Shown: positions 11,468 through 60,507, counted from the stretch's first letter. The stretch is DNA of 64,000 nt from Cyanophora paradoxa CCMP329 (GCA_004431415.1 QPMI01000022.1:434001-498000), one strand, 5' to 3'. Translations and numbers: made by a program. The notes: generated from the letters alone by a model not told the origin.

Positions 11468-13603
11468 ATGGAGATCAACAGCAATCGCGAGACCAACGTT
11501 TTTAACGCGGCCGCGGCCGGACTCGCATCGCTTCCAGCCAGCATCCTCCAAGTCATCTTCGCGCACGCTTATCCAGATATCTGCGATGCCTTTTTCGTGT
11601 CACGACTCCAGACCATCTGTCGGAATTTCCGCCAAGCGCTGCCGGACGTCCACTGGGAGCGCCTGGACTTTGCCCGCGCGCTCGGCCCTCTCGACGGCAA
11701 CGCATTCGAGGCGCGGGCGGCCGCTCTTCTCTTCTGGATAAAGAACGGCTTGATTTCCCGCGTCTTTCATTTTGACGTGGAGCTGGACTTCGCCCCTATA
11801 AGCACATACAGCTCTTTCAGCTCCGTCGAAAGGAACAGCGCTTACTTCCTGGAAGATTTCATGGAGACGTTCTATGTTGCCTGCCAGTCATTCGCGCAGC
11901 ACGCCGTGAACACTCTGATCGCCCTCGCCTCTTCGAATTCGCGCGCCGGCGCCGCGCCCACCGTCGTTTCTATCGGCCTCGAGGAGAATCCGGAGCTCGC
12001 CACGCATGTGTCTTCAATGGGCCTCGAGTCGTTGGCTGCTCCGTTTTTCTCGTCGATTCTGCAAGCTCTGGCCCCCGCGGGCTCGGAAATTGAGCGGATT
12101 CTCGTCCAGGGCGAGATTTCTGCACGGAGCTACGAGTTCAACAGCCCGGAAGGCCGGTTGACCGACGCGAATTTCTGGGCGACGCGTCTCTCGCCGTTCT
12201 CGGCTCTCAAATGGCTCGGCATTGCCTTTAGCACCTTCAGCGCTTTTGACAGCATGGTTGCCGAGTACGCCGACTATTCTGGCCACGGAGGGTTCGGACA
12301 AGCCGCTGCTGCAGGGGGGCGCTCTCGGCGGGCCTTGTTCGACGCTTCCACGGCAGTGCTACGGGGTGCCGGCGCCTGCAGCTTCGCTGCAGGTTTGAAG
12401 CAGCTCTGCGTGGGCGCGATGAGTAAGGACGACGATCCGCACCTGCTGCTCCAGCCTTTCCGCTCCGTCGAAATCTTCAGCACGACGCCCCAGTTTCTCA
12501 TGGAGCCGGCCCTGAATGGGGCCCTGCGGGAGCTGCCGAGCTTGCTCCGGCTGGACATCTCTGAGCTGCCCGAGCAGGCCGGCGCCCTCGACATCTTTCC
12601 TTCGGAGCTGTTCGCTTCTCTTGGTGCGCTCGGGCTCGTCGCCCTCTCTGTGCCGATGGCGGTCGGCGTATTCGACGGAATGCTGGATTTCGCGGAGGCG
12701 TGCCGTCTGCCCGCGCGCGGCACTCGTGATCAGAAACCGTCGACGTCGCAAGCCCTCAAAATCCTCAAGATCTCCGGCCAGAGTCTCTCGCCTCGTTTCA
12801 TTGGCGGCTGCTTCGAGAAACCGGAGGCAGAGTTTCTTCTGCCGCCCGCGTCCGCCTACTGCCTCGGCGCCGACCAACTGTCGGCGATCTTCTTGAGCTG
12901 CGGTCTGCTCGAAGAGCTCGAAATTCCGGTGCATCCTGCCCATTCTTAAGCTTCATGATCAGATCTAGAGCTTCACAAACTGACCGCGCCCGCGCCGGCG
13001 GCAGGTGGCGTTGCACGCGTGGCCGGCGCTCGACAGCCTCGCGAACCTCCCCCGCCTCCACACCCTCCGCCTCGCCGTCTTTAACACCAAAGAGGTCCGA
13101 CTTCGCTGTGCACTTCTTTAATTTTCTGCGAAGGACAGATTGCGATTAATATTTTCGCAGGACGCGACGGGCGGGGCGGAGTTCTTTGGCGCGGCAGCCG
13201 ACGCCGTGCAGCGGGCCCCGGCCCTGCGCGAGCTCCGCGTCCGCCTCTTCCCGGGCTGCGGGGCGCCCCTCGGCGGCCCCGCGAAGGCGTCCTTCGTGCG
13301 GGCGGCGGGGCGCGCGCTGGCGGCGTGGGAGTACGGCGAGGACGGCGGGCCGCTGTGCCGCGAGGAGGCGGGGGCGCTGGCGGAGGCGGCCGCAGCGCAC
13401 GGGCGGCTGGGCCGCGTCGCCCTCCGCTGCGCCGTCGAAGGGGAGGACGGCCTTCGCGACTTCGCGGCCCTCGACGCCCTCGCCGCCTGCCCCTCCTTCA
13501 AGGCGCCCGCGCGCGCCGCCCGCGCCGCTCAATTTCCAATTTCCCGCCGCTGAGTGCGAGCTCGAGCAGGGGCGGGAGCTGAAGCTGGAGGTGGCGGTGC
13601 CGG
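11468..13603 (+). CDS. F-box-like / degenerate LRR protein, interrupted in its last exon by the integrated virus (continues at 26680-26774)
   Basis: 493-aa first-exon ORF with F-box-like LASLPASILQVIFAH...LQTICRNFRQAL..VHW and LRR-like segments; later exons ~13005-13094, 13160-13502 and 13570-13603. Confidence 0.65.
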
Positions 13604-13932
13604 AGCTGAGCTGTGAGCATTACACCCAAAAATTACCCCAATATAATTTGCCCCTTCAAGCAATATCCGCATGATTCCCAGTAACCCAATCCCCAATCTC
13701 AGTAAATCTCAGTAAGCCTCAGTCACAATCTATTTTATTTAATCGAAGTTATATGCATTACACCCAAAAATTACCCCAATATAATTTGCCCCTTCAAGCA
13801 ATATCCGCATGATTCCCAGTAACCCAATCCCCAATCTCAGTAAATCTCAGTAAGCCTCAGTCACAATCTATTTTATTTAATCGAAGTTATATCTAAAATC
13901 TAATCAATCGAAGTTATATGCATTACACCCAA
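13604..13932 (+). repeat. Left terminal inverted repeat (329 bp) containing a 138-bp tandem duplication
   Basis: Reverse complement of 26345-26673; unit GCATTACACCCAAAAATTACCCC... starts at 13617 and 13755, with a partial third copy at 13920. Confidence 0.95.
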
Positions 13933-14100
13933 ATTTTACCGCATTTTATTTACGACATTCAGTAACAACGAGAGATTCCCGATGATACACCCAATATACC
14001 CATATTTCTCGATTGAATCCATAAAAAACAACAACCACTAAACCATTCACAGTTACACCCGTTACACTTCCACATCTCCGATTGATTCACATTACACCCA

Positions 14101-14424
14101 TCACATTCGCATAAATTGCATCCAAGTAGCAGGATTAGCAATACTTACGTCTGATTCGGAAGACATACCTTTTTGGTAATTATAACAGAATTCACAAAGT
14201 AGTCCCTGAGACATTGGTTTGAGTTTTTCAGTATCTCCACAAATCATACAACAGTTTCGGGTTCCCATTCGTTCATACATAGCATTTGCTTTTGCCTGTT
14301 GTGAATGTGTTAATTTCAATTCGCCGACGTTTTCATTTACCATAGAAACAACCGGACGTCCACTTTTAGCGCCGACGTATTCAGTCATATTACGATGTCG
14401 TTCACTTGCTTTTCTCTTACCCAT
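14101..14424 (-). CDS. Small viral zinc-finger protein (107 aa)
   Basis: ATG-started ORF with CMICGD...LLCEFC (two CxxC); AT-rich upstream region with AAAATTTGA motif. Confidence 0.6.
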   Translation of the reverse strand: MGKRKASERHRNMTEYVGAKSGRPVVSMVNENVGELKLTHSQQAKANAMYERMGTRNCCMICGDTEKLKPMSQGLLCEFCYNYQKGMSSESDVSIANPATWMQFMRM

Positions 14425-14530
14425 CGTTATTACTACTTCTCAGATTCCTTTTAAACTTTGTCAAATTTTGCCCCGATGCAAAAAATGACGCTTTAAAACT
14501 TAAAACTTTACAACGATACACTTGTAATCA

Positions 14531-14713
14531 ATGGCGACCAAACGAACCGCGGACATTCTGTGTTATAACATGGACTTCTTACCTAATTCAAATAGTGTTT
14601 ACGCTGATTTTTTCGGAGATAATCTAACTGATGAATCTATTTCGATTATATTTGGTGTATACAAGTGTTTGCATCAATTCCAAGGTGTAACATCGTTTAT
14701 GGTATGTTACTGA
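14531..14713 (+). CDS. Possible small viral protein (60 aa)
   Basis: ATG ORF filling the gap between the Zn-finger and ATPase genes; no recognisable motif. Confidence 0.25.
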   Translation: MATKRTADILCYNMDFLPNSNSVYADFFGDNLTDESISIIFGVYKCLHQFQGVTSFMVCY

Positions 14714-14785
14714 TCCTGAAAGTGAGATATGCAAGATCTTTAAGATGTTCACACTCGAACAGGTAGAAGATCTGAGAAGACCAAA

Positions 14786-15553
14786 TTAAACCGTAATAGT
14801 CGTAGGTTCATTACTAATTCTTATTGATTCTCTCTTTTTTATCGCTCGTCTCTTAACAAACTTCTTAAAGCCCTTCATATCATCATCTGTTAATATTGCC
14901 CGGTCTGTGTATACTTTTATATCATACCCTTGCAATCCAGTTATGACTGTTTGGTAGTTATAACCCCACAGTCTATGCAATTCCTTGTAGGTCTTTTTAT
15001 CAAGACCACCATTATACTCATCATAAGCGCAGTTAAACTCCTTCTCATTCCCGAGAATATTGAAAAATACTACGAACTCAACATTTCGACGAATCGTAGT
15101 AGAAATTGAACATAAACGTTGAGTATTAATAATTACTGTAATCGAATAATGACGGGCTGTAGTGATCAATTTAGATAACACAGCCGAATTATGCATATCC
15201 AAAGAAGAACCGATCATATCGTCTAAGATTATAACCAAATTATTACGCTTCTCATTATTCTCAATTCGTTTCTTTTGCATGCTAATGAGTTTCACTACTA
15301 CATTATCGTCCCATTCCTCATAGATATTATCAGGATGCGTTATATCTCTGAATTGACCAGTAAACGCAGTAGAACTAAAGACTACAATCTGATCGATCTT
15401 ATCCCTCAGTTCATAAAGTAGATATTTGCAGTAAGTTGTCTTACCAGAATTGCTGCGTCCACATAATAAAAAACGCGTGCTTAATTTAACTGTTCTTGCA
15501 GGCTCAAACTCTGAGATGTCATTCAAATCAATATCCATTCCTGTGTTATCCAT
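14786..15553 (-). CDS. A32-like / FtsK-HerA genome packaging ATPase
   Basis: Walker A GRSNSGKT, Walker B LVIILDD, ARHY arginine motif, INTQ sensor; 255 aa; adjacent to the capsid gene. Confidence 0.9.
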   Translation of the reverse strand: MDNTGMDIDLNDISEFEPARTVKLSTRFLLCGRSNSGKTTYCKYLLYELRDKIDQIVVFSSTAFTGQFRDITHPDNIYEEWDDNVVVKLISMQKKRIENNEKRNNLVIILDDMIGSSLDMHNSAVLSKLITTARHYSITVIINTQRLCSISTTIRRNVEFVVFFNILGNEKEFNCAYDEYNGGLDKKTYKELHRLWGYNYQTVITGLQGYDIKVYTDRAILTDDDMKGFKKFVKRRAIKKRESIRISNEPTTITV

Positions 15554-15632
15554 TACAGTAATAAGATAAAAAACAAAATAAACCCCAACCCTACTAATTT
15601 TGCGCTTCCTACTCTAACGAAAGAAAAGAACT

Positions 15633-16859
15633 TTAAAAGTTCGAGACTTTTAGGGTAGAGATGTTGTAGCCATTGATGACCATAACATTGTGTCGTAAGC
15701 AAAAGATATCCACCTGAACAGGCGCCTCGGTAGTGCATCCCGAAACAGTGAGATCCATGTAACTGGAACTGCTGTTGAAGAAATCCTGATAACCCATAAC
15801 ACTGTTCCGAAGCGAATCTTTTCCAGATTTGGAAAGAACAATTCCATAAACATTTCCATTCTCGAATCCATAAGTAGTATTGCCAACAGTAACACCCTTG
15901 TAATGAGAAGGAATGTGATTGATAGCCGAGAGGAAGCCAGAAATGGGTTTGTTGGAGATATCCAGGGAGCGATTGTTGTGGAAGATCTGGAACTGATCGA
16001 TCTTAACATCCGAAACATGACCACAGAAATCAGAGTGATTGTAAGTGTTAAGTTTGTTCACCTCTCGAACTGTCATGAGAATCGAATGAACCAGACCAGA
16101 AACATTAGCGAGTGTCACCTCAACCGATTCACCAGCATCAGCGGTTTTGAGCGCTCGTGTCTTCTTGTGGATGACCTCTGTGATCGGAATACGAATGCCA
16201 CCTTGTTCATTTGCCATTTTCAAAAGTGTCTCAGCCTCAGCCGAAGCGATGTTTACAAATTGACAGATCAGGGAGCAATCCGCAAATGTAACAGATCCAC
16301 CAGCAGGAACTTTGACTATCCCAGCGTCACGGAAATCAATCTCGATTGTTGGCATATCAGCCAGTGTGCATAGTGGGAAGTAAGCATCATCCCAGAAAGC
16401 AGCGGGAATTTTCACAATGTATTCCATAGCCTCATCTGTGCTTTCACGATCAAGTTCTTTGAAGTAACCAAGAGAAGCATACATGCTGCTCATGGTAGCA
16501 TGATCATTATCAATCAGAGAGTTAATCGTAATCCAGTCTCCATTTAGGATATGTTTAAAACCCCCATGAACAAAGCGGACCTCATTAATAAAGGAAGAAC
16601 CACCATTGGGGAGGGTGCAGGCTACACCACCACCAGTAGTAACCTTAAAGTAAATCGAAACACCAGCAAGGAGTTGCTTGCGAGGTAGATCAAAGTAAGC
16701 GGTATTCTTAAAGCCAAAAGTATTGCCTCGGGGACGAACTTGCTCGAGGAATGGTTTGTACTTGGGGTTGGTTCCGATTTGGAGACCAGGGGATAGATAA
16801 ATTTGATCGGAACCGGGAGTTACGAGGAGTTCCTTAAGGGTAGTTCCAGTGAGTGCCAT
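15633..16859 (-). CDS. Major capsid protein (double jelly-roll), PLV type
   Basis: 408-aa beta-rich ORF; N-terminal FG..TAYFDLPRKQLLAGVSIYF...FINEVRFVHGG...NGDWI pattern and C-terminal VDIFCLRHNVMVINGY resemble DJR MCPs; position between ATPase and penton genes. Confidence 0.8.
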   Translation of the reverse strand: MALTGTTLKELLVTPGSDQIYLSPGLQIGTNPKYKPFLEQVRPRGNTFGFKNTAYFDLPRKQLLAGVSIYFKVTTGGGVACTLPNGGSSFINEVRFVHGGFKHILNGDWITINSLIDNDHATMSSMYASLGYFKELDRESTDEAMEYIVKIPAAFWDDAYFPLCTLADMPTIEIDFRDAGIVKVPAGGSVTFADCSLICQFVNIASAEAETLLKMANEQGGIRIPITEVIHKKTRALKTADAGESVEVTLANVSGLVHSILMTVREVNKLNTYNHSDFCGHVSDVKIDQFQIFHNNRSLDISNKPISGFLSAINHIPSHYKGVTVGNTTYGFENGNVYGIVLSKSGKDSLRNSVMGYQDFFNSSSSYMDLTVSGCTTEAPVQVDIFCLRHNVMVINGYNISTLKVSNF

Positions 16860-16911
16860 CTCTTATGTTTAAAATACCAAAAGAAATTTTTAAAATGCTT
16901 TATTAAACAGA

Positions 16912-17811
16912 ATGACGCGTCATTACCTTAATATTGATTCCAGGGACCGAGATGATGGAACCCCAACGAACTTTACTTACAAAATTCCCCATGCAATCCA
17001 AAATGTGAGAGCCTGCAGAGTGACTAACTTTGAGATGTTCAATAACATTTACAATCTTAGCGAGAATGGAAGTTTGATTACAGGAACCTATGATGTTGGA
17101 GATGTAATTAAAACTAAGAATAACACTATTTCAAAAGGGACATATACTTCGGATAGTTTGGTGAATCTTCTAAATGCCAAACTAGCTTCACAAGTGTATG
17201 GTGCAGCAGGAACTACCTATACTCGCCATTTCTACGTTACATATGATCCTGTTACCATGTTTCTAAGGTTCATGTGCGATGCAACATTTACCCTCACCTT
17301 TGGAAGTCGGATCTTAGCAAACTTCCTTGGGTTTCCAGAGCGTAGACCTGACAGTTCAGAAAATGGTTACGCTTCTGCCCTGCTGGATTCACCTGTAACA
17401 GTCGGAACTAATACTTATAATTACTACATTGACAGTGTTATACCGCTCGATCTTCTGTTCAACTCTTACATCCTTCTCCACGTTGACCCACTCAAAGGCA
17501 ACTATGTAAGCAAGAACACAAGCGATGATAAAGCCCTCGCAAAAATCGAGATTGATCAAACGGTAGGCAGTCTCTTAAAATATGATTCATCGAATAATTC
17601 CATGATCCTGCATGAGCAAAACGGTTTGGTGGAAGTTGAAACGCTAAAAGTTCGTCTCACATACTGGAATGGTGCCGAAACGGATATTACCACTGATTGG
17701 TCGATGACGCTTGAACTCATTACGGAAGATGATAAAGATCTGACAAAGAAAGCATTGAAGAATGTCATTAAAGAGTTGGAGGGACTCTACTTGCCGTTCT
17801 CACGGTCATAG
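16912..17811 (+). CDS. Minor capsid (penton) protein
   Basis: N-terminal YLNIDSRDRD...PTNFTYKIP and C-terminal LKVRLTYWNG...DWSMTLEL pattern typical of PLV/NCLDV pentons; 299 aa. Confidence 0.8.
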   Translation: MTRHYLNIDSRDRDDGTPTNFTYKIPHAIQNVRACRVTNFEMFNNIYNLSENGSLITGTYDVGDVIKTKNNTISKGTYTSDSLVNLLNAKLASQVYGAAGTTYTRHFYVTYDPVTMFLRFMCDATFTLTFGSRILANFLGFPERRPDSSENGYASALLDSPVTVGTNTYNYYIDSVIPLDLLFNSYILLHVDPLKGNYVSKNTSDDKALAKIEIDQTVGSLLKYDSSNNSMILHEQNGLVEVETLKVRLTYWNGAETDITTDWSMTLELITEDDKDLTKKALKNVIKELEGLYLPFSRS

Positions 17812-17847
17812 GAAATACTGTAGAATAAATTTGTCTCGATATTACAA

Positions 17848-18597
17848 ATGGCAACTCGAAAGACCCAGCCAAAGAATTTCTTAGCCAAACCAGTTGAGCA
17901 AGCGGAACCAGAACGGAAACAGTTTAAGAAATCAAAAGGAACCGCTGCATATGGAACTGGTGATCTCGATAAAAATGTTCACCAGACCATGAATGCTCAC
18001 ACAATTGCGCTTACTTCAAACTCAAATGATGATAATGCCCTGGTTGATCAAGTCCCACTGAACCGCATGCCTGGAGCCAAACGAGGAATCAAGAAAGGAC
18101 AGTTCAAATCATCGACAAAGGACAAGGTTGCCTCATCATCAACACTGCTGAAACTGCTTGATGGTGGTGAGCGACTCTACTCAACCTATTCCGAAAAAGA
18201 CCATCGCAACCGCTACTTTATTCGTTCAACCACTGGTGGACTGAAATCTGTGACATACCAGTATGCTAAGAGTCTTGTTGATGGTATCGCCGATGAGACA
18301 CAGAAAGAGAAGAAGATAACGGAGCAACCGATAACCAAAGAGAAGGTAGACAAGAAACCAAATGTTACGTTTGATGTGCTACCCGATCCTATTAAGGTTA
18401 CCAAAGAATCACCAGCAGAACTGATTGCGAAGACAATTGATTATCAAGACTCCAACAAAACGGATTTGCCGGTCCTGAATAAATCAATCCTTCGGGTTGC
18501 CACTTCGCAGGCTGATCCAGTCAACTCGATTCCAAATGCTGCCCCAATGGTCTCAGGGTTTGCCAAGCTCGGTATTAAACCTGGTTATCGCCGTTAA
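17848..18597 (+). CDS. Lys-rich viral protein of unknown function (249 aa)
   Basis: Clean ATG ORF with viral composition, downstream of the penton gene. Confidence 0.7.
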   Translation: MATRKTQPKNFLAKPVEQAEPERKQFKKSKGTAAYGTGDLDKNVHQTMNAHTIALTSNSNDDNALVDQVPLNRMPGAKRGIKKGQFKSSTKDKVASSSTLLKLLDGGERLYSTYSEKDHRNRYFIRSTTGGLKSVTYQYAKSLVDGIADETQKEKKITEQPITKEKVDKKPNVTFDVLPDPIKVTKESPAELIAKTIDYQDSNKTDLPVLNKSILRVATSQADPVNSIPNAAPMVSGFAKLGIKPGYRR

Positions 18598-18870
18598 GGG
18601 ACGGCTCACGCATCATTTCCGAATTAAAAAAATCTTGAACATTGTTAGCGCTACGTAACCAATCTTATCCCGTAGGCTCAAAACTTCTTCATTTTTATGG
18701 AGGCGTTGTAGAGTGAAGTGAAAAATATCCATAGGTAAATCACTTTAATCACCTGTTCTATCGGGTTCAGTGGTAGAAACTTGCAGCCGACAAGTGAACC
18801 TTCTGGGTATCGGTGGCTTTATCATTTTTCCAGCATCTTCTTTCATACTGGATGCAATGCGATTGGGACC

Positions 18871-18960
18871 AAAAATTGACAGGAGTTTAATCGCTATATA
18901 CAAACAGAAAAACTACTTAAAGATTTCTTAACATATATTAAGAGAGTAGAAAAGGACAAA
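18871..18960 (+). promoter_or_regulatory. Putative early promoter: AAAATTGA + TACTTAAAGA + TATATTAA
   Basis: AAAATTGA at 18872-18879; the same three elements occur upstream of the replicase gene. Confidence 0.55.
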
Positions 18961-19218
18961 ATGCCAATCAGTGAGGCTCAGAAGCGTGCTATTTACCGTT
19001 ATCGCAAAACTGAAAAAGGTCAAGAATATTTAAAAAAGTATAATGCGAAATTAGCAAAGCAAATGCGTGATTTATACCATACTGATGAGTGTTACAGAGC
19101 CATGAGAATCGTTGAGAGTTCCCAGCGTCTCTATGCTTCCAATGCAGTCTGCTTTGTTAAGTATCTCTATGGCGTCCCCTATTCTAACCGTGGTCGCAAA
19201 TCGAAATATGTCTGTTAA
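18961..19218 (+). CDS. Small basic helical protein, putative DNA-binding (85 aa)
   Basis: MPISEAQKRAIYRYRKTEKGQEYLKKYNAK; highly basic; clear promoter-like upstream region. Confidence 0.65.
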   Translation: MPISEAQKRAIYRYRKTEKGQEYLKKYNAKLAKQMRDLYHTDECYRAMRIVESSQRLYASNAVCFVKYLYGVPYSNRGRKSKYVC

Positions 19219-19399
19219 TTGTTTTTCTCAGCGCGATCTGCTCTGAGAAACCCGTGGGAACCGCGCTGGAACCACAAATAAAATCATTCTATTATTTTTA
19301 GAGTTCGATGATCGAGCCAACCCTTTGTTATTTTTATGAATGCCCTCGACTGAATTAATTTTGTTGGAGACTTTTGTTTTTTTGCCGGTAAAAAATTGA

Positions 19400-21050
19400 C
19401 AAGATCCGTGCTCCTGCGGAGCACTAAGTACGGCGAAGCCTCGCGGACGCCCTCGCGGCTGTCACAGTAGGCCTATAGGCTATAGGGCACTGGCCACTGG
19501 CCAGCGGCCTGGCCGATCGCGAACAGCTTTCTGGCTAGAAGCTGGCTGGCTGACACAGTCCACTGGCCAGCTAGAGCTGGTCGGCTAGAGGAATATTAAT
19601 GCCATGTACTGAGCGAGGAAATAATTAAAGGGTGGAGCAGATCGATCTAGATTAATTGAGAGGAGATTAATTATATAATATTGTTGGGAAGGAGGCCCGG
19701 GAGGGGCGAGGTTCTCGCGGCCAGGCGCATGCACAGAGCTTGCGATTCGCTTAAAAAGAATCTCGAACGCATATATATAGCATCGATGTGCAGGTCTGCG
19801 GAGGCGAGGGCGCGCGGAAAGATGTGCAGGCGTGGCCAGGATCGCATTTTTGCGTCGGCTGAATTGCCGCGCCCTGTCGCGTCCGCAGAGCTTGCGAAAG
19901 GTTTTTAAAAGATCTTAGATGAATATTGTAGCGATGCGCATGCGTGAGGATGCGAGGGCGCGCGGAAAGATGTGCAGGTCCGTGAAGGATCGAATTTTCG
20001 GAGTCGGCTGGGTCGTCGCAGCCTGGCGCATCTGCAAAGCATGCAGAATGCTTTGTCTACATCTTAACTGTTTATGCTATTGTTCCGCGCATGCGCCGCG
20101 GCGTGGGCGCGCGGAAAGATGTCCGGGTCCGTGCAGGATCGAATCTTCGCCGTCGGTTGGGTTCTTGTGGTCTTTCGCGTCTTCGAAGCTTGTGGAAGGC
20201 TTTGATAAAATCTCGAATGAATATACCCGCGATGTGGCCTGCGTGAGGATGCGAGGGCGCGCGGAAAGATGTCCAGGTCTGTCCAGGATCGAATTTTCGG
20301 AGTCGGCTGGGTCGACGAGGTCCGGCGCATTTAGAGACCGTGCGGAAGGCCTCGTCTACATCTAAAATGCTTATGCTATCGTTCCGCGCATGCGCCGCAG
20401 CGTGGGCGCGCGGAAAGATGGCCGGGCCCGTGCAGGATCGAATTTTTGCCGTCGGGTACCTTCCTGCGCTGTTCCGGCTCCGCAAAGCGGATTTCGGGGG
20501 TGTGCAGGCCGTGCTATGTCTATGCGCGCCAGTACGCATCGATTGCGCGCGTCGCGGGACCGGGCGGAACCGGCCGGATCAAATTTTCGGCCGACTCTTC
20601 GCACTGGAGCGTCGACGGCGCCCGAAATCGAGCTTGCGGCGATGCGCTCGCCCTCGCGCGTCATTCTGTATCGTTCTGGGGCGTCCCTGGCGCGATTTCG
20701 TCGCGGGACCGGGCGGGACCGGGTCCCACCTTCTGACTCGGACTGCATTTGTCGGAGGTTAAGTACCGGAATTGATCCAGAGGGAAATTCGATTTTCGCG
20801 GGATGCCTACGGGAGAGCGGTCGTCTTAGGGAAGCCAGGACGCTAAAAATGGCTGTGTGCGGGTTCGGGGAGCTGTGTTACCAGCGGCAATCGCGTCGGT
20901 GTCGAGGCAGAATTAATAATTCTGCCTCGAGGGAGTGTGATACGGAAATTATTTAGCAGGGGGGATCTCGAGTGGAAAAAAAGGTTAAAAAAGGAATTTA
21001 TATCGGCGGTTTTTGGTTTTGAGAAAGAGGCTTCGCCTGACGCGAGTATA
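19400..21050 (-). mobile_element. Non-autonomous Helentron-like element (family A) nested in the virus
   Basis: GC-richer island; minus-strand start TTTTATACTCGCGTCAGGCGAAGCCTC; sub-terminal IRs at 21027-21037 and 19432-19442; hairpin 19408-19424; CTTGT end; five or more ~149-bp central tandem repeats (GGGCGCGCGGAAAGATG near 19808, 19957, 20105, 20255, 20404); terminal ~74 bp match 1458-1531. Confidence 0.8.
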
Positions 21051-21103
21051 AAAGTATTTAAAGAAAACTTTTGTAGGTATATATTAATAGAGTGAACAAA
21101 GAA

Positions 21104-24100
21104 ATGCCTCGACCAAGTAATCGAATTTCGAAGAATTTGCAGGATGAGATTCTTGGTTACTACATGCAAGCAAAAGTAGAAGACAAATTGACCCGAGAGC
21201 AGGATATCTATTTCTTGAGAGAATTTACTTTCAAAGCAATTAGAATTCCAAAGTTGATTGATATCAGAGATACACTGAGAGGTATCGTAGAGCCTCGTTT
21301 GTATCGCAAGCAGGAGAAGAAGGAGAAGAGGGCTGAGAGAGCCGCTAAGAATGTTGAGAAGCAGAACAAGAAAGCAGCCGAAGCAAAGAAGCGGAAGCGC
21401 TTTGATCGCAAGCAGAATAAGAAGGCTAAACGTTCCGCTCGTTCCCAGAAGAATGTGGAAAAGCAGCAAAGTAAGCAGTTCAAAGCGCTGGTAAGGAGGA
21501 TCATAAGGGATATTGAGGCCCAGGATGGTGATACAGTCTCGCTTCGTGTGAGGTTTTACAGAATTCCTGAAGACTTTAATAACCTCCCAAACAACTACGA
21601 TGTTGTTATCCACGAAGACACACCATATATTGAAACACAAAAATCCGGAAAACGCGCATTGATGGTCTCCTGCCCCAAGCAAGTGCTGGTGAGATTGCTT
21701 GAACAGGTGCAAGAGGACTTTAATAACTTCTTTGCATTGTGGACTCTGAACGAGATCGCTTCCTTCCTGATTTCTATTGGGCAAAGCAACCCTCGCAATC
21801 GAGACTATCAATTCGTTAAGGTTTTCACGAATGATGCGCCCAATGGTTCAGACATCAAGTATCCAGAGGTGATGACAATCGAGGAGATTATTGTCAGCGA
21901 TAACAAAACAGTATACCCTTTGAATGAACGAGTTCTGCGAGATGGGCAGGCTCCAAAAATCGTTTCTCGTTTCGTGAAATACACCCTCAATGGTCAGGCT
22001 AAGTGTGTGATGGACCAAATATGTCCCGATGATTCACTTACCATCAAAGATTGTTTAATCGAAGCATTACATCAGGTTCTATGCAAAGGGTTTGAGTATG
22101 CCCGCAGCATCAAGAAGTATAAGAAGGTCAACTACTCCAAAGACTGGCTCTTTGCTCAGATCAAGGGATATGAACCTAAGCCTGATTCCGATTGGGGAGT
22201 GAGTTTTGATGAGCTTCTTCCTTTCTTGAAAAAGTGGCGCATCAGGTTCATTGCAATTGGAAAGGATGACAAGGTTATTCATACTCTTTCCTTCAAACCG
22301 AATCGAACCAACTCTCACTTAGTTCCCGCAAGTGTTTATGTGCAGATTGCAAACGACCACGTTTATGTATTAAATAAGGATCTCAGTAAACTGGTTCGTT
22401 CTTTCAATGGAACTGGCGCCCGTGAAACCAAGAAGAGTATGGGTTCAGCAGCCATGAAATACAAGATCAAAACACAGTTCAACGATAACAGCTTCTTTGC
22501 TTACAGCGAGGAGGATATCATCAAGATCATTGCCAGAGAGAAAGATAGCAATTCCGAAAAAATTAAGATCACATACAACAAGCCGTTACTTGAGTTGTTG
22601 GGAAGCTTCCGAAAGGCTAATCACGAGGTTCACACTTCCATTACTGATGAGGGAACAATAACATACATTCACTACACAATAGAGGATAAAGATGTAATTA
22701 TCCTTCCACCAGGCAACATGGTGGATATGGAAAATATTGATGTGAACCTTGCAGATGATGCCCATCGCAAGTTGTTTGATGAGATGAGTCAGATGATGTA
22801 TAGGGCGCTTATCAACAAACCCTACAAGAGCAAATATAATCCAGAAACATATGCAGCATTTACTAAAGGGCAACAGAGTGCATTGACTGGGTTCTTTGGA
22901 TCTGCCTCTGAGGTCCGAACAATGGTAGAGAACATTGCCTATGGATCCATTGATACTCACAAGCTCGACATTTCCAAAGCATACACACACATCGTTTCGA
23001 AAGTGCTTAAGGTGTTTCCAGTTTTCAGTTCATTTGATAGATTCGAAAAAGTCAAAGTGTCTTGCAGCTCGGACATCGAAGACAATTCGTTCTATTCCGT
23101 GAAAGTGAAAGCCAAACACTTCAAAGCATTCAGAAATTATGGTGAGGCGAATACCTTGAATCAATACAAGAGGATTCTCGTCGATTCAAAGTATAACCTG
23201 ATGTATGGTGAGGTTTTGAAAGAGTTTTACGAGGATATTAAGGATGACATCAGCATTGAGGCAGTTCTAAGACCTTATCGGATTGCCGAGAATGTCACCT
23301 TGCAGGCTTTCAAGCAGTTGTATGCAAGTCAGCTTTCGACCAAGGAGAAGAAAGACATTGCCAACCATCACATTGGTCTATTTGGTAAGAAGTCCCAGCG
23401 AAAAGCAACCACCTACACCTTTTTCAATAAAAATGATGCTCTGAATTTCATTGAAGAGAATGGAGGGACCCTGAAGTTTATAAGTTTCGATCAAGAGAAG
23501 CCAACACACACATCAGTTAAGAATGAGAAGGACATTAAATCGCCCATGATTTGGTATGTGAACCAGGAAGAACAAGAACGGGCTTTCATTGATGGTTTCC
23601 TGCCAATGCAGTGCGTGATTTACTCCACCATGCGAGGCATCATGTATCGCCTATGCAAGAAATTGCTCTCTGAGGGAGTGGGAGTCCTTGCAATCAAGAC
23701 CGATGAGCTGACAATCGATAGACCATATCCATTCGAGCAGTTTGACCGAAACCTATTCGAGAACACTGGAAAGTTTGATGTGAAGCCAGCAAACATGAAC
23801 TCGATAACCCACAGTAAGAGGACTTCCAAAAAACCAAAGAGCCACATGATCACATTTGATCGACTCAAAACTCGTTCCAAACCTTTCATCAATGTTGAAA
23901 AGATTGTTCACAAGGTTCACAAGTTCCAGGATGAGTATGACCTCCCAGCAATCGTAAATGCTTTGGATGGGCAAGGTAATGTGCTGATTAAAGGAGTGAA
24001 ACCGGAACTGGTAAGACTACTTTGGCAAAGGCAATGGCCAAGAAGTATGGTAAGAAATGCTTGTTCGTTGCGCCTACTAATAAGAGATGCAAGGATTTGC

Positions 24101-24112
24101 GAATGGAACTAA
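21104..24112 (+). CDS. Divergent family-B (protein-primed-type) DNA polymerase, N-terminal part of the replicase polyprotein
   Basis: Motif A KLDISKAY, motif B KDIANHHIGLFGKK, motif C variant AIKTDEL; upstream OTU-like DCLIEAL...NDHVY; first ATG at 21104; runs into the first strand of a P-loop (NVLIKGVKP). Confidence 0.7.
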   Translation: MPRPSNRISKNLQDEILGYYMQAKVEDKLTREQDIYFLREFTFKAIRIPKLIDIRDTLRGIVEPRLYRKQEKKEKRAERAAKNVEKQNKKAAEAKKRKRFDRKQNKKAKRSARSQKNVEKQQSKQFKALVRRIIRDIEAQDGDTVSLRVRFYRIPEDFNNLPNNYDVVIHEDTPYIETQKSGKRALMVSCPKQVLVRLLEQVQEDFNNFFALWTLNEIASFLISIGQSNPRNRDYQFVKVFTNDAPNGSDIKYPEVMTIEEIIVSDNKTVYPLNERVLRDGQAPKIVSRFVKYTLNGQAKCVMDQICPDDSLTIKDCLIEALHQVLCKGFEYARSIKKYKKVNYSKDWLFAQIKGYEPKPDSDWGVSFDELLPFLKKWRIRFIAIGKDDKVIHTLSFKPNRTNSHLVPASVYVQIANDHVYVLNKDLSKLVRSFNGTGARETKKSMGSAAMKYKIKTQFNDNSFFAYSEEDIIKIIAREKDSNSEKIKITYNKPLLELLGSFRKANHEVHTSITDEGTITYIHYTIEDKDVIILPPGNMVDMENIDVNLADDAHRKLFDEMSQMMYRALINKPYKSKYNPETYAAFTKGQQSALTGFFGSASEVRTMVENIAYGSIDTHKLDISKAYTHIVSKVLKVFPVFSSFDRFEKVKVSCSSDIEDNSFYSVKVKAKHFKAFRNYGEANTLNQYKRILVDSKYNLMYGEVLKEFYEDIKDDISIEAVLRPYRIAENVTLQAFKQLYASQLSTKEKKDIANHHIGLFGKKSQRKATTYTFFNKNDALNFIEENGGTLKFISFDQEKPTHTSVKNEKDIKSPMIWYVNQEEQERAFIDGFLPMQCVIYSTMRGIMYRLCKKLLSEGVGVLAIKTDELTIDRPYPFEQFDRNLFENTGKFDVKPANMNSITHSKRTSKKPKSHMITFDRLKTRSKPFINVEKIVHKVHKFQDEYDLPAIVNALDGQGNVLIKGVKPELVRLLWQRQWPRSMVRNACSLRLLIRDARICEWN

Positions 24113-47968: not shown

Positions 47969-56050
<8,082 letters not shown>

Positions 56051-57896: not shown

Positions 57897-60507
<2,611 letters not shown>

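Follow-up and report, generated by a model that had tools for sequence, protein, structure and literature searches.

The window analysed here, a 64,000-nucleotide (nt) stretch of Cyanophora paradoxa CCMP329 DNA (QPMI01000022.1:434001–498000), contains an integrated polinton-like virus (PLV) at 13604–26673. Four of its non-structural genes are preceded by a short, regularly placed word of the viral early-promoter type, followed by a second box of TTAAA(G) type about 35–55 nt before the ATG. The element is laid out as follows (aa, amino acids; ORF, open reading frame).

13604–26673, no strand: integrated PLV, AT-rich in a GC-rich host, flanked by TGCCGG
13604–13932, plus: left terminal inverted repeat, 329 bp, with two 138-bp tandem copies
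14101–14424, minus: 107-aa ORF with CxxC pairs, putative zinc finger, no Pfam match
14469–14460, minus: early box AAAATTTGAC, 45 nt before the zinc-finger ATG, then AGTTTAAAA (14457–14449)
14480–14489, plus: early box AAAAAATGAC, 51 nt before ATG 14531 of the 60-codon ORF, then AACTTAAAA (14497–14505)
14531–14713, plus: 60-aa ORF, function unassigned
14786–15553, minus: A32-type packaging ATPase (Pox_A32, E = 3e-14), no early box upstream
15633–16859, minus: major capsid protein, 408 aa, predicted double jelly-roll (structure model), no early box upstream
16912–17811, plus: probable minor capsid (penton) protein, no early box upstream
17848–18597, plus: 249-aa ORF, function unassigned, no early box upstream
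18871–18880, plus: early box AAAAATTGAC, 90 nt before ATG 18961
18909–18922, plus: second box AAAACTACTTAAAG, at −52 from ATG 18961
18961–19218, plus: 85-aa basic ORF directly 5′ of the replicase
19391–19400, plus: early box AAAAATTGAC of the polymerase promoter, now parted from its gene by a nested insertion
19400–21041, minus: nested non-coding, high-copy transposon, possibly Helitron2/Helentron-like
21050–21064, plus: second box AAAAGTATTTAAAGA of the polymerase promoter
21104–24112, plus: pPolB-like replicase, N-terminal part of a pPolB–SF1 helicase–HNH fusion, split by a frameshift near 24000
24034–25287, plus: SF1 helicase and HNH-like part of the same fusion
25287–26219, plus: rve integrase, start overlapping the helicase stop, probable frameshift near the 3′ end, no early box upstream
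26345–26673, minus: right terminal inverted repeat, a perfect (100%) complement of its left counterpart

The word AAAAWWTGAC has exactly four matches in the window, all in sense orientation and each upstream of a non-structural gene, with 45, 51, 90 and 72 nt to the start codon (72 for the polymerase, discounting the insertion). Two boxes are exact copies of the octamer AAAATTGA, one is of the AaV type (AAAAATGA) and one is a variant; both replicase-side boxes hold the exact mimivirus octamer. The base after TGA is C at all four sites. The chlorovirus element ARNTTAANA, which AGTTTAAAA (14457–14449) fits, is present in two of the four promoters, at −33 and −34, and an exact AATGACA lies upstream of no gene of the element. 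A preliminary description of this DNA had reported AAAAATTGA at 18871–18879, followed by TACTTAAAGA and TATTTAAAGA before ATG 18961, together with a minus-strand variant before the zinc-finger gene (AAAATTTGAC at 14469–14460), and both are present. It had seen no motif in front of the capsid and ATPase genes, an absence that AAAAWWTGAC confirms and that extends to the penton, 249-aa and integrase genes. What it overlooked is the fourth box, AAAAAATGAC, which forms a back-to-back promoter pair with the zinc-finger box. Early boxes precede 4/4 non-structural and 0/4 structural-module genes (Fisher p = 0.029).

By number alone the octamer is ordinary. The element holds 2 copies of AAAATTGA where 300 shuffles give 1.8 (P = 0.54), and when the whole window is shuffled, two or more copies turn up in 24 of 100 cases; the enrichment over shuffled sequence proposed earlier as a check is therefore not seen, and we rejected the count, which equals chance, as evidence. 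The accompanying check on placement came out differently: both exact copies fall within upstream windows (2/9 occupied), a position that is non-random at P = 0.001. The four-gene pattern AAAAWWTGA was reached in none of 200,000 simulations, for a pattern defined after seeing the data, and WWWWWTGW, the loosest of the published forms, picks out these four genes as well, without significance (P = 0.32). With 44 matches in the element, that form was set aside as too loose. Taken with the comparisons below, the sequence data support a positioned, conserved, viral-type early-promoter word on the non-structural genes.

A distant relative allowed us to examine conservation independently of the motif. 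This free 18-kb contig, L001, was found through its replicase and shares about 25% protein identity with the window PLV. Its gene order matches that of the window, with a small basic ORF, a pPolB–helicase–HNH gene and rve (L001:9612–15472). At −100 to −20, AAAATTGA precedes one of 15 L001 genes, the orthologous polymerase (chance 0.027 for that window). The small ORF of L001 carries AAAACTACTTAAAG at −52, the same 14-mer at the same offset as the 85-aa ORF here, a 14-nt match that 3 of 3,000 shuffles reach. The proteins encoded downstream, of 85 aa and 64 aa, resemble each other weakly at their N termini (9/15 residues identical). Because L001 keeps both boxes, the promoter is, on this sequence comparison, in two parts. 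L001 is a relative by replicase, integrase and gene order, its penton and ATPase matches being weak; as a capsid relative it was rejected, its capsid being unalignable to the window capsid family. An alignment search of viral contigs with the helicase returned only L001, and capsid, ATPase and integrase queries found no relatives there.

The landing site of the nested transposon is the TGAC of the polymerase promoter, and the upstream box now lies 1.64 kb from its gene, through the transposon. The preliminary description had proposed that AAAAATTGA at 19391–19399 would join TATATTAA before ATG 21104 once the nested element was removed, and sister contigs show exactly this junction. In two of three DNA-type runs they skip 19382–21037 and read AAAAAAT/TGAC or AAAATT/TGAC into the polymerase leader; the joined promoter exists in natural copies. 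Some sister copies retain 14420–14492, the double promoter, where the flanks no longer align, and in one the match resumes exactly where the second box begins, at 18909.

The transposon itself has asymmetric 11-bp subterminal inverted repeats, a 3′ hairpin (19408–19424) and an internal tandem of about 149 bp. A related short copy lies at 1034–1531, with inverted repeats and hairpin in both, and the repeat is 10–20 times deeper than the PLV in DNA runs. Asymmetric subterminal inverted repeats, a 3′ hairpin and the lack of a target duplication define the Helitron2/Helentron class, to which the insert may belong. The two copies are each inserted between a G and a T (context GTCA/GTTA), which differs from the T-rich target of this class, and no autonomous partner was found.

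Over the replicase/integrase stretch, alignments of the window to long sister-copy contigs contain one or two gaps (gap counts only), so the frameshifts of this copy are private mutations or assembly errors. Since the transposon splits its polymerase promoter and its replicase is frameshifted, this copy is probably disabled. Its inactivity is likely and not certain, because Cafeteria EMALEs carrying nested Ngaro elements are reported to be possibly still capable of reactivation (PMC10945749). The earlier suggestion of a host antiviral trap is, for this copy on its own, unlikely, given the transposon inside the polymerase promoter and the frameshifted polymerase–helicase.

Beyond this family, we searched viral contigs (IMG/VR) and 596 Gb of prokaryote genomes for the two-box pattern AAAATTGA-N10–40-AAAACYACTTAAAG, obtaining 35 and 71 loci, respectively. 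Placement in a promoter position (non-coding, 10–50 nt before an ORF) was found for 18/35 viral against 2/71 prokaryote loci, or 12/17 against 2/64 without near-duplicates (p about 6e-9). These viral loci were chosen by motif. Among the carriers are contigs with Sputnik-type capsids (L135, L142, L143 and L152), D5 primase–helicases (L125, L127, L138 and L139) or pPolB genes (L183, L205, L223, L232 and L234), and giant-virus contigs with TFIIB downstream (L160 and L172) or RNA polymerase genes including RPB3 (L155 and L157). The second box also precedes the replicase-side small ORF in L125, L127, L138, L139 and L142/L152, which the search pattern did not require. In 11 giant-virus loci with 111 genes, AAAATTGA is strand-biased, 28 sense to 9 antisense. 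A looser pattern, AAAATTGA..TACTTAAAG, was rejected as mostly chance (17/120 promoter-like; 4/6 for GVMAG-labelled loci among the 80 loci listed). In a metagenome scan 59 of 88 matches were promoter-like, a share that is partly by construction, the ATG being in the pattern.

One cassette, in which a TTAAAG box precedes a small basic helical ORF and both boxes precede the replicase that follows, recurs in PLVs and in true virophages that differ in their replicases. A short metagenome contig (L191:1–1510) encodes an rve integrase with 36% identity to that of the window (E = 1e-47), the nearest to it among those seen, adjoining a RING-finger gene with a two-box promoter.

The insertion is bounded by a 6-bp target duplication, TGCCGG, at 13598–13603 and 26674–26679, and each terminal repeat contains two perfect 138-bp tandem copies (13617–13892; 26385–26660). 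GC content is mostly 36–43% in the coding part and about 55–80% in the surroundings. At 13.07 kb, the 1.64-kb insertion included, the element is slightly small against the PLV range of ~14–40 kb. It has the PLV traits of inverted repeats, a 5–6-bp target duplication with an rve integrase, an A32 ATPase and a double-jelly-roll capsid. Because neither a virophage capsid family nor a protease was found, it is a PLV and not a lavidavirus. The window capsid has no Pfam match, in the same test in which the capsids of L142 and L143 matched Sputnik_MCP_1st, and virophage capsids have no tblastn match in the window. Neither Pfam nor tblastn with one protease-like query revealed a capsid maturation cysteine protease, of which a very diverged form could escape these searches. 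Family depth is tens of times that of flanking host DNA (DNA runs, one organism), so the family is multi-copy, depth not being an exact copy number. PLVs and endogenous giant viral elements have been reported in the glaucophyte C. paradoxa. Host genes elsewhere in the window include a Ser-Pro repeat protein adjoining fibronectin-III exons, frameshifted in the repeat (49734–51932), an RlmN-like methyltransferase fragment (59551–60507) and an LRR-SAM protein (29922–31106).

The capsid was modelled with AlphaFold at moderate confidence (pLDDT 59.6, pTM 0.65), after a single-sequence fold with pLDDT 31 had been discarded. Foldseek places the model nearer to the PBCV-1 capsid (E = 8e-16, TM 0.62) than to that of mavirus or Sputnik. 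Only three homologues, at 25–27% identity, were found among 1.84 billion representatives, the sole named one from C. paradoxa; word-based searches found nothing past one alignment member, and Protein Data Bank sequence searches gave no match. By sequence, the window capsid is deeply diverged. The penton assignment is a probable one, from the position next to the capsid gene and a weak BLASTP match to an L001 protein near the L001 capsid gene (E = 2e-6); viral look-alikes score 0.97–0.98, and the single jelly-roll of a minor capsid protein is putative here. Capsid and penton genes stand head to head over 52 bp (16860–16925), the penton start lying inside the palindrome ATGACGCGTCAT. This spacer is alignable in diverged copies and may hold a late promoter. 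The replicase is 24% identical to a 1,403-aa fusion, P0004 (E = 6e-23), its Walker A motif being in another frame. A look-alike search with the 85-aa protein gave nothing informative. No general 3′ hairpin signal was seen; one hairpin follows the 85-aa ORF (z = −2.2).

The closest parallel for the promoter is Gezel-14T/PgVV-14T, which is reported to carry AAAATTGA before its polymerase and recombinase and to depend on PgV (10.1101/2022.07.28.501842). Both are PLVs with a AAAATTGA-type early promoter before replication and other non-structural genes, a double-jelly-roll capsid, a penton and an A32 ATPase. Gezel-14T, however, is described with TVpol and a tyrosine recombinase, whereas the window PLV has the pPolB–SF1 helicase–HNH fusion, an rve integrase, the 6-bp duplication and the TGAC box variant. 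Helper dependence has been shown for Gezel-14T and is likely for the window PLV. Mavirus and the EMALE provirophages of Cafeteria burkhardae (PMC10945749) are likewise described as multi-copy, integrated, equipped with rve and pPolB, often interrupted by transposons and furnished with giant-virus-like promoters. They are lavidaviruses using a late promoter of the helper, in contrast to the early-type motif here and an element with neither a Sputnik/mavirus capsid match nor a detected protease. Freshwater virophages with a D5-type primase–helicase (L125, L127, L138, L139, L142 and L152) share a small ORF with an AAAAC/GT(A)CTTAAAG-type box followed by a two-box replicase, but have another capsid family and replicase and are free contigs, whereas the window PLV is integrated.

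In chloroviruses, the early promoter is reported to combine AATGACA (−60 to −90) with ARNTTAANA (−15 to −45) and to be used with host RNA polymerase (PMC5294985). The layout resembles ours in having two boxes at similar distances from the ATG, a TGAC core and an ARNTTAANA fit in two of the four window promoters; it differs in that the window lacks an exact AATGACA and has an A-rich AAAAWW flank, as in Imitervirales. PLVs with polB–SF1 helicase fusions and rve integrases have been described with comparable replication and integration modules (10.64898/2026.06.19.733378), in a report whose main text does not contain the word 'promoter'; the window capsid could be placed in none of the clusters given there. 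The second box was found neither by full-text literature search nor in the motif table of PMC5636890; the figure logos of Gezel-14T, bioRxiv supplements and subscription papers lay outside that search. A PLV with a giant-virus early promoter has already been published, and to this the present analysis adds a distant PLV lineage, a TGAC variant of the box and a second box that is conserved.

With moderate confidence, we favour a co-infecting giant virus as the most likely supplier of transcription factors for the two-box promoters, because of the analogy with Gezel-14T and with Tetraselmis PLVs, related viruses reported strictly to require a giant virus. Once a giant virus infects, its transcription factors would act on these promoters, yielding the small basic protein, the pPolB–helicase and probably the adjoining integrase as early products; capsid, penton and ATPase would follow from other AT-rich promoters, and intact sister copies would then excise, replicate and be packaged. 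Protection of the host by the PLV is suggested by analogy only. A number of observations weigh against a giant-virus supply of factors. The virion core in the cytoplasm is generally considered the place of early transcription in Imitervirales, and a nuclear provirus would have difficulty reaching it. The provirophages described so far respond through late promoters, and two of the four promoters fit the ARNTTAANA of chloroviruses, which use host RNA polymerase. In the giant-virus loci (111 genes) the second box shows hardly any strand bias (18 sense to 12 antisense), and both boxes occur together in nine genes, not above search-seeded sites. In 10 small-virus loci the split between structural and other genes is 0/13 against 15/92 (p = 0.21). 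C follows TGA at 4/4 sites here, against 1/51 in 16 hand-picked giant-virus loci and 2/40 in 21 small-virus loci; of the earlier reading, the positioned viral-type early-promoter word on non-structural genes is supported, and an Imitervirales virus is one possible helper. Lastly, 5/5 RNA-like runs of the same organism contain PLV-family contigs, among them parts of the capsid, penton and ATPase genes of a diverged relative. That these runs are RNA is a guess, and their contigs give no strand, start or level. Four of them (X15, X16, X18 and X20) hold short ATPase, capsid-start, penton-start or integrase pieces at high word depth (14900–16960, 25400–25880), with the nested repeat at depth 0–80 although it is 10–20 times the element depth in DNA runs. 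As a weak hint, the diverged relative may be transcribed or replicating in the cultures. None of the runs recorded as RNA is listed as containing the family, which has no bearing on expression, and the missing coverage of the polymerase in the RNA-like runs was given no weight.

It is possible, if rather unlikely, that host RNA polymerase II instead reads the boxes in the nucleus in chlorovirus fashion, with a factor from the host or the PLV binding the TGAC box and the TTAAAG box acting like a TATA box. In that case the family would begin its cycle, and might even finish it, with no giant virus present, and the likeness would reflect shared ancestry or promoter grammar. The reported chlorovirus layout with host polymerase (PMC5294985), the invariant TGAC and the ARNTTAANA matches at −33 and −34 are consistent with this, as are the first isolation of Tsv as a nuclear lytic PLV and, weakly, the high-depth contigs of the relative, with the nested repeat low, in four of the five RNA-like runs. 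Yet exact AATGACA precedes no gene, both replicase-side boxes contain the exact mimivirus octamer, and the same two-box promoter drives replicase genes in virophages that have Sputnik-type capsids and belong to a class with known dependence on giant viruses. Moreover, where closer copies are represented in the RNA-like runs, their contigs have lower depth and extend across several genes or into a terminal repeat, which resembles read-through more than a viral programme. A chlorovirus- or prasinovirus-like helper with a nuclear phase, or a giant virus that is endogenous to the host or persists in it, in place of an incoming Imitervirales virus, would reconcile helper dependence with a nuclear provirus and a TGAC-type box, both of which may fit a helper with nuclear early genes; giant endogenous viral elements reported in C. 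paradoxa and family sequence in RNA-like runs are in keeping with it, but no helper sequence was seen, and we regard this as improbable. That the boxes arose by chance in AT-rich sequence between genes is highly improbable and largely refuted. The raw count, the non-significant WWWWWTGW and the fact that there are four sites only would allow it, whereas the positional test, the viral–prokaryote difference, the retention of the boxes in sister copies and the identical 14-mer at an identical offset in L001, at about 25% protein identity, argue against it.

Returning to the supply of factors by a giant virus, a broader proposal can be made, which we hold as tentative and on the doubtful side. The two-box promoter (AAAA(A)TTGA ... 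AAAACTACTTAAAGA) on a cassette of small basic ORF and replicase may be a shared plug by which unrelated virophages and PLVs connect to giant-virus transcription; the TGAC variant here would point to an unknown helper, and one member of the family may be active in the cultures. If so, existing cultures would directly test whether such promoters need a giant virus, a question that bears on whether most integrated PLVs are giant-virus parasites or autonomous nuclear viruses. The family is present in tens of copies in an organism kept in culture; its promoter is sharply defined, open to mutation and split by a natural insertion, and RNA-like data hint at activity. The second box provides a simple sequence marker by which early promoters of both virophages and PLVs can be recognised.

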